A DNA stretch of 5,201 nucleotides, taken from the IMG/VR virus record IMGVR_UViG_638341084_000014. One strand, written 5' to 3'. The DNA is from a virus (taxonomy: Duplodnaviria; Heunggongvirae; Uroviricota; Caudoviricetes). The position numbers and the translations under genes were made by a program. The notes under the pieces were generated by a model. It worked only from the letters and a program-made list of their open reading frames with translations, had not been told where the DNA came from and made no database searches. Below are positions 804-1,282 of this stretch, in pieces; positions within the stretch are counted from its first letter, which is position 1; every line of letters starts with the position of its first letter.

Positions 804-967
804 AGAAATGCGCGGGTACGACAGTGACTCGTCAAATCTCAGCTGTAGCACACGCAGGATCAATTCTGGATTATCTGCCAGTACCGCTTTTCGTGCATTC
901 ATCTTAAATGTCCTTTTACTGCGAAAATGGACATTAGTATCGGAAACAGGAAAGGGAGGCGAAAGAC

Positions 968-987
968 GGTTTAAATGATGCGCTTAC
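968..987. repeat. Candidate right terminal inverted repeat (IRR) of the IS66-family element
   Basis: The sequence GGTTTAAATGATGCGCTTAC ends in the IS66-type terminus CGCTTAC. The integrase codons (…KDI) resume immediately at 988. A related 20-mer, GGTTCTGGCGAGCCGCTTAC, lies at 784-803. Confidence 0.55.
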
Positions 988-1282
988 AGATATCTTTAAG
1001 CCTTATACCCTCAAAATGTTCAAGCCAGAACTCAATCCGGCTTTTATCTGAATCGAGAGATTTTTTATCAGCTTTTTCCTCAAGCCATCTTAGGCAGGCC
1101 TCTTCAAAAGTGACATCAGGTAAATCCCCTAGCTTTTCTACTCGCCAGAGTTCTGCTTTTCGCTTGTCGTGCAACTCCTGAGCTTGCCGCTTGTCCTTTG
1201 TGCCAAGAGATTCCTTAATTCGTTTCCCGCCCGGGAGCGAATACGAGGCATACCATATTTCATTTCTGCGGAAGAGTGACAT
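971..1282 (-). CDS. int: Phage tyrosine integrase, N-terminal (arm-type DNA-binding) fragment; truncated by the IS66 insertion, with the last 5 codons and the stop IS-derived
   Basis: The translation [48 protein letters not shown]... matches the N-terminus of lambdoid prophage integrases of the IntD type, as recalled. A full integrase is about 350-400 aa, but this ORF stops after 103 codons, 17 nt past the IS terminus. An AGAGGAAAG Shine-Dalgarno motif lies upstream of the ATG at 1280-1282. Confidence 0.8.

Follow-up and report, generated by a model that had tools for sequence, protein, structure and literature searches.

Insertion of IS679 in the integrase gene of a prophage of enteropathogenic Escherichia coli B171, probably with a second IS679 copy nested in the first

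We identified an IS679 element that interrupts the IntD-type integrase gene (int) of a prophage in enteropathogenic Escherichia coli B171. The complete account that we consider likely is that one IS679 copy (copy B) lies in int after codon 98, that a second copy (copy A) is nested inside it, and that the catalytic half of the integrase gene has been split off. The stretch of DNA analyzed (5,201 nucleotides, hereafter the window) is the reverse complement of an entire contig, AAJX02000092.1 (5201 bp; GCA_000167895.4), which was found as an exact match via a 103-amino acid ORF. The AAJX accession belongs to the draft genome of strain B171 (PMC4464170). Window positions 988-5201 share 99.98% identity with an E. 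coli FDAARGOS_1059 prophage which adjoins tRNA-Arg and fimZ (the DLP12 site) and has an IS679 of its own at another position in int. tRNA-Arg and fimZ adjoin this int in every relative examined, and the window would belong to a lambdoid prophage of the kind found at the argU tRNA-Arg site (the DLP12 site), of which it would hold the left arm. On the minus strand, int is followed, in the order of the window, by a 123-amino acid excisionase-like ORF and then by yfdT-, DUF551-, yfdR-, yfdQ-, and yfdP-like genes. The window prophage has the same integrase type as DLP12 of K-12 (IntD) and the same attachment region by tRNA-Arg, but differs from DLP12 in its early region (yfdP, yfdQ, yfdR, and yfdT-like genes) and in having its int split by IS679. 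The features relevant to this account are the following.

1-803, plus strand: 3' part of IS679 copy A (IS679 positions 1899-2704; 803 of 806 aligned positions match)
72-773, plus strand: C-terminal part of copy A tnpC (233-amino acid ORF as read; Pfam)
777-902, minus strand: chimeric 41-amino acid ORF, consisting of TnpA residues 1-33 and eight codons read off the right end of copy A (deposited as EDX27752.1)
779-803, plus strand: right terminal inverted repeat of copy A, with GAGCCGCTTAC as its last bases (803 corresponds to IS679 position 2704)
804-811, no strand: candidate 8-bp target duplication AGAAATGC of copy A in copy B, expected from the 8-bp rule of the family
804-987, minus strand: first 184 bp of IS679 copy B (left inverted repeat, leader, and tnpA codons 1-33; 100% identity)
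963-987, minus strand: left terminal inverted repeat of copy B, GTAAGCGCATCATTTAAACCGTCTT, directly next to int (alignment and repeat search)
971-1282, minus strand: chimeric 103-amino acid ORF, consisting of Int residues 1-98 and the tail CKRII-stop read off the left end of IS679 (identical to EDX27750.1)
988-995, no strand: candidate 8-bp target-site duplication AGATATCT, a palindrome (sequence present)
988-1282, minus strand: integrase codons 1-98 plus one nucleotide (IntD type, N-terminal part only; 100% amino acid identity to intact IntD)
1138-1509, minus strand: excisionase-like ORF (123 amino acids) overlapping the start of int (phrog_2907 and HTH_17)

IS679 is a member of the IS66 family, which is characterized by a DDE transposase (TnpC), the accessory proteins TnpA and TnpB, and an 8-bp target duplication. 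It was reportedly first described, by Han and colleagues in 2001, on plasmid pB171 of this same strain, which we take to be a carrier of many IS679 copies. As a reference we used the 2704-bp IS679 element that is flanked by 8-bp duplications in E. coli E100341 and named 'IS66-like element IS679 family transposase' in RefSeq. Judged by alignment to this reference, the element in the window is IS679 of the IS66 family. The tnpC part shows matches to the Pfam domains DDE_Tnp_IS66 (PF03050, E=5e-64) and DDE_Tnp_IS66_C (PF13817, E=1e-16). Window positions 803-987 equal IS679 positions 185-1 on the reverse strand (185 of 185 nucleotides), and because of this identity over 185 nt the IS terminus next to int is more than a fortuitous match of seven nucleotides. 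The tnpA ATG (IS679 position 86) falls at window position 902, and 33 tnpA codons are kept in copy B, which has the same orientation as int and abuts the N-terminal int fragment with its left inverted repeat. A repeat search showed that 779-803 and 963-987 form a direct repeat 184 nt apart. Both termini start with GTAAGCG, reading GTAAGCGCATCATTT on the minus strand of 963-987 and GTAAGCGGCTCGCC on the reverse complement of 779-803. Of the three IS66 genes, the window holds the C-terminal part of tnpC and tnpA codons 1-33, as the contig covers part of each copy, with tnpB beyond its limits. The window resembles IS679 in its GTAAGCG termini, in the placement of tnpA and tnpC, and in the 184-bp left end (100% identical), but differs from it in that both copies are incomplete within the window, that tnpA of copy B is broken by copy A, and that copy A has three deletions of one nucleotide.

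These three deletions are located in homopolymers at window positions ~18, ~27, and ~55 (AAAA to AAA, CCC to CC, and CC to C), and they break the tnpC frame 5' of window position 72. A comparison with complete E. coli genomes gave 5124 IS679-like copies, of which none has these deletions (best identity 97.3%). All three are confined to the terminal 57 nt of the contig and are probably sequencing errors and no real frameshifts.

The preliminary description of this DNA had implicitly assigned the terminus at 981-987 to the element that carries tnpC. A single IS66-family element of this kind, with its right terminus at 981-987 and with tnpC (1-773) and the terminus touching int on the same copy, would account for a tnpC ORF and a GTAAGCG-type terminus that lie on one side of int with ~210 nt between them. 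However, IS679 stops at 803 (position 2704), 30 nt further than the tnpC stop codon (771-773), whereas 804-987 is IS679 184-1 in reverse at 100% identity, with a tnpA start on the minus strand. The alignment refutes the single-element model, which is left with hardly any probability, and the earlier assignment had to be given up: the copy with tnpC ends at 803, and 804-987 is the left end of a second, inverted copy. Because the terminus touching int is the left end of this second copy, a search upstream of the window for a 'left IS end' would miss the simple arrangement that had been pictured, and the record, being a whole contig, has no sequence upstream of the window.

The order of events that we infer from the two nested fragments is that copy B would have transposed first into the intD-type int gene, between window positions 987 and 988 and after codon 98, and that copy A would later have inserted in the opposite orientation, disrupting tnpA of copy B at IS positions 184/185. 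Read along the window, this history would place tnpC with the right end of copy A at 1-803, the initial 184 bp of copy B at 804-987, and int codons 98 to 1 at 988-1282. The spacer between int codons 98 and 99 would then be at least 2.7 kb, and ~5.4 kb if both copies are complete.

The integrase side of the junction was delimited by comparison with intact genes. The sequence at 981-987 is CGCTTAC (minus strand, GTAAGCG), followed at 988-995 by AGATATCT. The intact intD gene of E. coli FDAARGOS_497 (387 amino acids) encodes the same protein as the window ORF through residue 98 and diverges from residue 99 onward, which is S in the intact protein and C in the window ORF. On the plus strand, the insertion point of the intact FDAARGOS_497 gene reads CTCCG directly followed by AGATATCT. 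A search of 5426 complete E. coli genomes showed that DNA similarity to intD starts exactly at window position 988 (query position 289) in thousands of genomes, and the RefSeq name for genes with the identical N-terminus is 'intD'. PHROG integrase families also match the window int ORF (E=4e-65). The preliminary description had proposed an IS66-family element in an IntD-type prophage integrase gene after codon 98, and the IS679 alignment and the comparison with intact IntD bear this out. GTAAGCG on the minus strand of 981-987 and the foreign tail CKRII-stop were likewise read again in the sequence and in the ORF translation.

In intact IntD (387 amino acids), the catalytic domain (PF00589, to which the HxxR motif and the Tyr nucleophile belong) spans residues 184-355 and the match to the HP1 integrase catalytic domain spans residues 295-361. 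A Pfam search detected neither PF00589 nor an HP1-type catalytic match in the 103-amino acid ORF of the window. From its sequence, the int of the window is a gene fragment and no functional member of the tyrosine recombinase family. The earlier estimate that a full-length integrase would have ~280 further codons compares with 289 in the intact protein; the intact homologues run on past LKDI to 387 amino acids. It had also been stated that the catalytic domain must lie beyond the IS, outside the window, or be lost, and the first of these fits with the absence of PF00589 here and with a remainder encoded elsewhere in B171 (EDX28669.1, see below). That the 103-amino acid ORF is a genuine small protein could be argued from its start codon, its stop codon, and its annotation as a protein in GenBank, where EDX27750.1 is titled 'site-specific recombinase, phage integrase family [Escherichia coli B171]'. 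However, the first 98 residues match the beginning of intact 387-amino acid integrases at 100% identity, the last five residues come from the IS terminus, and the DNA similarity to intD ends exactly at the IS end. An independent gene family is refuted by the identity to the integrase together with the IS-derived tail, and we give the small-protein explanation next to no credence.

The junction between int and IS679 (987/988) is not confined to this contig. The chimeric 103-amino acid ORF and 100% identical DNA are present in six other contigs from at least 16 sequencing samples; these six are a 7313-bp contig of GCA_002466105.1 and contigs of five Logan assemblies. All six end 26-77 nt inside the IS, as is usual for short-read contigs that run into a repeat, and they are therefore neutral with regard to the nested junction. 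The junction is real and is inherited within a lineage. No exact match to either this junction or the nested one (803/804) was found in GTDB, which was searched with one genome per species, and 80-nt megablast probes across 987/988 and across 803/804 aligned as one piece to none of the 5426 complete E. coli genomes and none of the 72,556 plasmids. The few matches that covered at least 80% of either probe were rejected, as they consisted of two separate pieces joined by the tool, reflecting different insertion points or nesting.

Some sequence similarities were observed around the insertion points. Similar hexamers follow both IS termini (AGAAAT at 804-809 and AGATAT at 988-993), and the int junction (window positions 982-1001) forms a near-palindrome of 13 nt (GCTTACAGATATC and GATATCTTTAAGC). 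The sequence TTAAGCC, which follows the int target, resembles the IS end GTAAGCG, and the duplication flanking the IS679 of FDAARGOS_1059 (CGCTTAGC) is also end-like. These end-like sequences near targets may be due to chance or may reflect a slight bias toward targets that look like IS ends.

The nested junction (803/804) stands on weaker ground than the int/IS junction, and we regard a nested insertion at the int locus as probable. The break is located at the exact last base of the right end of IS679, with at most 1 nt common to the two partners. Since the break coincides with the IS679 end and no more than this is shared, it carries the signature of transposition and not of a misassembly driven by a repeat. 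The alternative is that int holds just one, intact IS679 and that 803/804 either stems from another locus that was joined here via the shared repeat of 184 bp or is a chimera assembled at a contig end of poor quality. This alternative would explain that the 803/804 junction and the chimeric 41-amino acid ORF, deposited as 'transposase 3 [E. coli B171]' (EDX27752.1), are confined to the B171 window contig among the assemblies, complete E. coli genomes, and plasmids searched, and the three unique homopolymer deletions at the contig end point to low sequence quality there. Simple nesting also predicts a reciprocal chimeric TnpA ORF (starting MMRLRISAQ, 190 or 189 amino acids), which was absent from a collection of 15 billion proteins; this absence agrees with an artefact without deciding between an artefact and nesting. 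Against the artefact stand the exact position of the break described above and the presence, in finished plasmids, of an IS66-family end placed head-on against an inverted tnpA fragment. Sanger-era reads, moreover, would span a repeat of 184 bp, which also counts against it. We consider an artefactual junction rather unlikely and retain the nested insertion, for which the reciprocal junction would consist of the left end of IS679, GCATTTCT, and IS679 from position 185 onward. The transposition of a single IS679 intramolecularly into itself was set aside by reasoning only, as the left end is still joined to int, which is unexpected by that route.

The 82.5-kb IncI1-type plasmids (e.g., NZ_CP024231.1) contain, at positions 5000-5320 of the extracted locus, an arrangement that is like that of the window and not identical to it. 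In plasmids of the NZ_CP024231.1 type, the tnpC right end is followed by 49 nt ending in CGCTTAC and then by an inverted 5' fragment of tnpA (IS positions 238-10). IS66-family elements may insert repeatedly into one another.

The remainder of int is encoded by B171 on another contig. A query of 278 amino acids, starting at M110, was built from the int of the 99.98% identical FDAARGOS_1059 prophage, and the predicted protein was found as EDX28669.1, annotated as 'prophage DLP12 integrase [Escherichia coli B171]'. No ATG, GTG, or TTG start codon is present between the predicted far junction and M110, so that a 278-amino acid product is what a simple split of int predicts. The presence of EDX28669.1 in B171 is consistent with a split int and is no proof of adjacent halves, because in other genomes the same 278-amino acid product results from a nonsense mutation or a frameshift in an int that is complete in all other respects, or from insertion of IS1 in int. 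On the int coding strand, the far junction would read GGCGAGCCGCTTAC, AGATATCT, and CGGAGGCAAAG in direct succession (the right end of IS679, the duplicated AGATATCT, and codon 99 onward). This predicted sequence, from the right end of IS679 through AGATATCT to int codon 99, had zero matches in the metagenome and viral collections searched.

The two int halves could also have been separated by a rearrangement mediated by the two IS679 copies (an inversion, a deletion, or a replicon fusion through recombination of IS copies with one another), in which case they would lie apart and matching 8-bp duplications would be missing. Two inverted IS679 copies are present, the far side lies outside the contig, and there is a precedent, as an IS66-mediated deletion with mismatched flanks has been documented (PMC6778807). 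However, int residues 110-387 are still encoded by B171, an ORF of the 278-amino acid type is found at the argU-fimZ end of the prophage in all relatives, and none of the data demand a rearrangement. We consider such a rearrangement unlikely and expect that a simple insertion, with the two int halves on either side of the nested IS679 copies, would be found. The target duplication of IS66 has been reported to be 8 bp (PMC6778807), which is the length of both candidate duplications proposed here. A metagenome contig of 1515 bp (ENA ERZ15186042) has yfdT codon 88 fused to int codon 96, with the junction at ~496. In this fusion the equivalent of window positions 998-1546 is deleted, and the endpoint on the int side is located 10 nt from the IS679 junction. 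Given its coverage of 0.58, the fusion may be an assembly chimera.

The ORF next to int matches the 'excisionase' family phrog_2907 over its full length (residues 1-116 versus profile positions 2-117 of 117, E=1e-45) and the Pfam domain HTH_17 (E=1e-8), and it overlaps int by the first 145 nt of that gene. The 123-amino acid gene was called in several related genomes, whereas RefSeq marks the first 22 codons only, in relatives, as an incomplete HTH gene or pseudogene. The annotation sources disagree on whether xis is intact. The earlier remark that xis is apparently intact seems fair in view of the full-length phrog_2907 match and the HTH_17 domain.

Excision of the lambda type requires complete Int and Xis acting on attL and attR. 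The split int would yield at most a 103-amino acid product that lacks the catalytic domain and a C-terminal ORF that lacks residues 1-109. In the absence of a complete Int, recombination between attL and attR would not be catalyzed, so that excision would depend on an integrase of matching specificity provided in trans. The B171 prophage is thus predicted from its sequence to be incapable of excising itself, which we consider a sound inference, and complementation in trans by the integrase of another prophage is conceivable.

Insertions at other positions of the same gene were found in three further E. coli strains. IS679 is present after int codon 279 in FDAARGOS_1059 (3482-6185 of the extracted locus) and after ~codon 80 in E100341 (3401-6104), and an ISCro1-like element is present after codon 251 in A34 (2337-5040). 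The 8-bp duplications at these three sister insertions are CGCTTAGC, CTTTTATC, and CAGCGCCA. The three loci are like the window in the gene that is hit, in the argU-fimZ site, in the IS66 family of the element, and in having int in two pieces, which there are pseudogene fragments, but they differ from it in their insertion points and in carrying a single complete element instead of a nested pair. Further int lesions comprise an IS1 at nt 254 in one locus (~1-326) and nonsense or frameshift alleles of the full-length gene in several genomes. Disrupted int genes are well documented for lambdoid prophages, as in Sp3, Sp11, and Sp12 of O157 Sakai, and these three are missing from the list of prophages with detected circular forms (PMC2669165). 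The Sakai prophages and the B171 prophage are both lambdoid with a broken int, but strain, prophage, and lesions differ, and excision of the Sakai prophages was assayed by PCR.

The independent recurrence of int lesions leaves room for a speculative explanation that is not neutral decay, namely that immobility of the prophage is selected for or that IS66-family elements prefer this gene as a target. The N-terminal region of Int is the arm-binding part by analogy with lambda Int, and as part of the same speculation the N-terminal fragment might bind att arms and hinder related integrases. We regard this explanation as quite improbable.

Both the element and the gene were already known, as was this type of event, and the pieces had been deposited and annotated as fragments. 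Prophages commonly become immobilized through an IS that lands in int, and no novel type of feature is seen here. The annotation can be corrected to two nested IS679 copies where one had been assumed, to EDX27750.1 and EDX28669.1 as the int halves, and to a chimeric remnant for 'transposase 3', with nesting and the pairing of the halves held at the strength given above. The predicted failure to excise bears on prophage mobilization in B171, which is an EPEC reference strain, and the int/IS679 junction, being common to several isolates, could serve as a lineage marker. Beyond such bookkeeping the significance is small.

Elsewhere in the window, ~460 nt (4090-4550) separate the yfdP-like gene from a plus-strand gene of 172 amino acids (phrog_1244). 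This interval contains no convincing ORF, and an Rfam search gave zero matches in the window, including 4090-4550. Judged by its position, it is presumably a divergent regulatory region.
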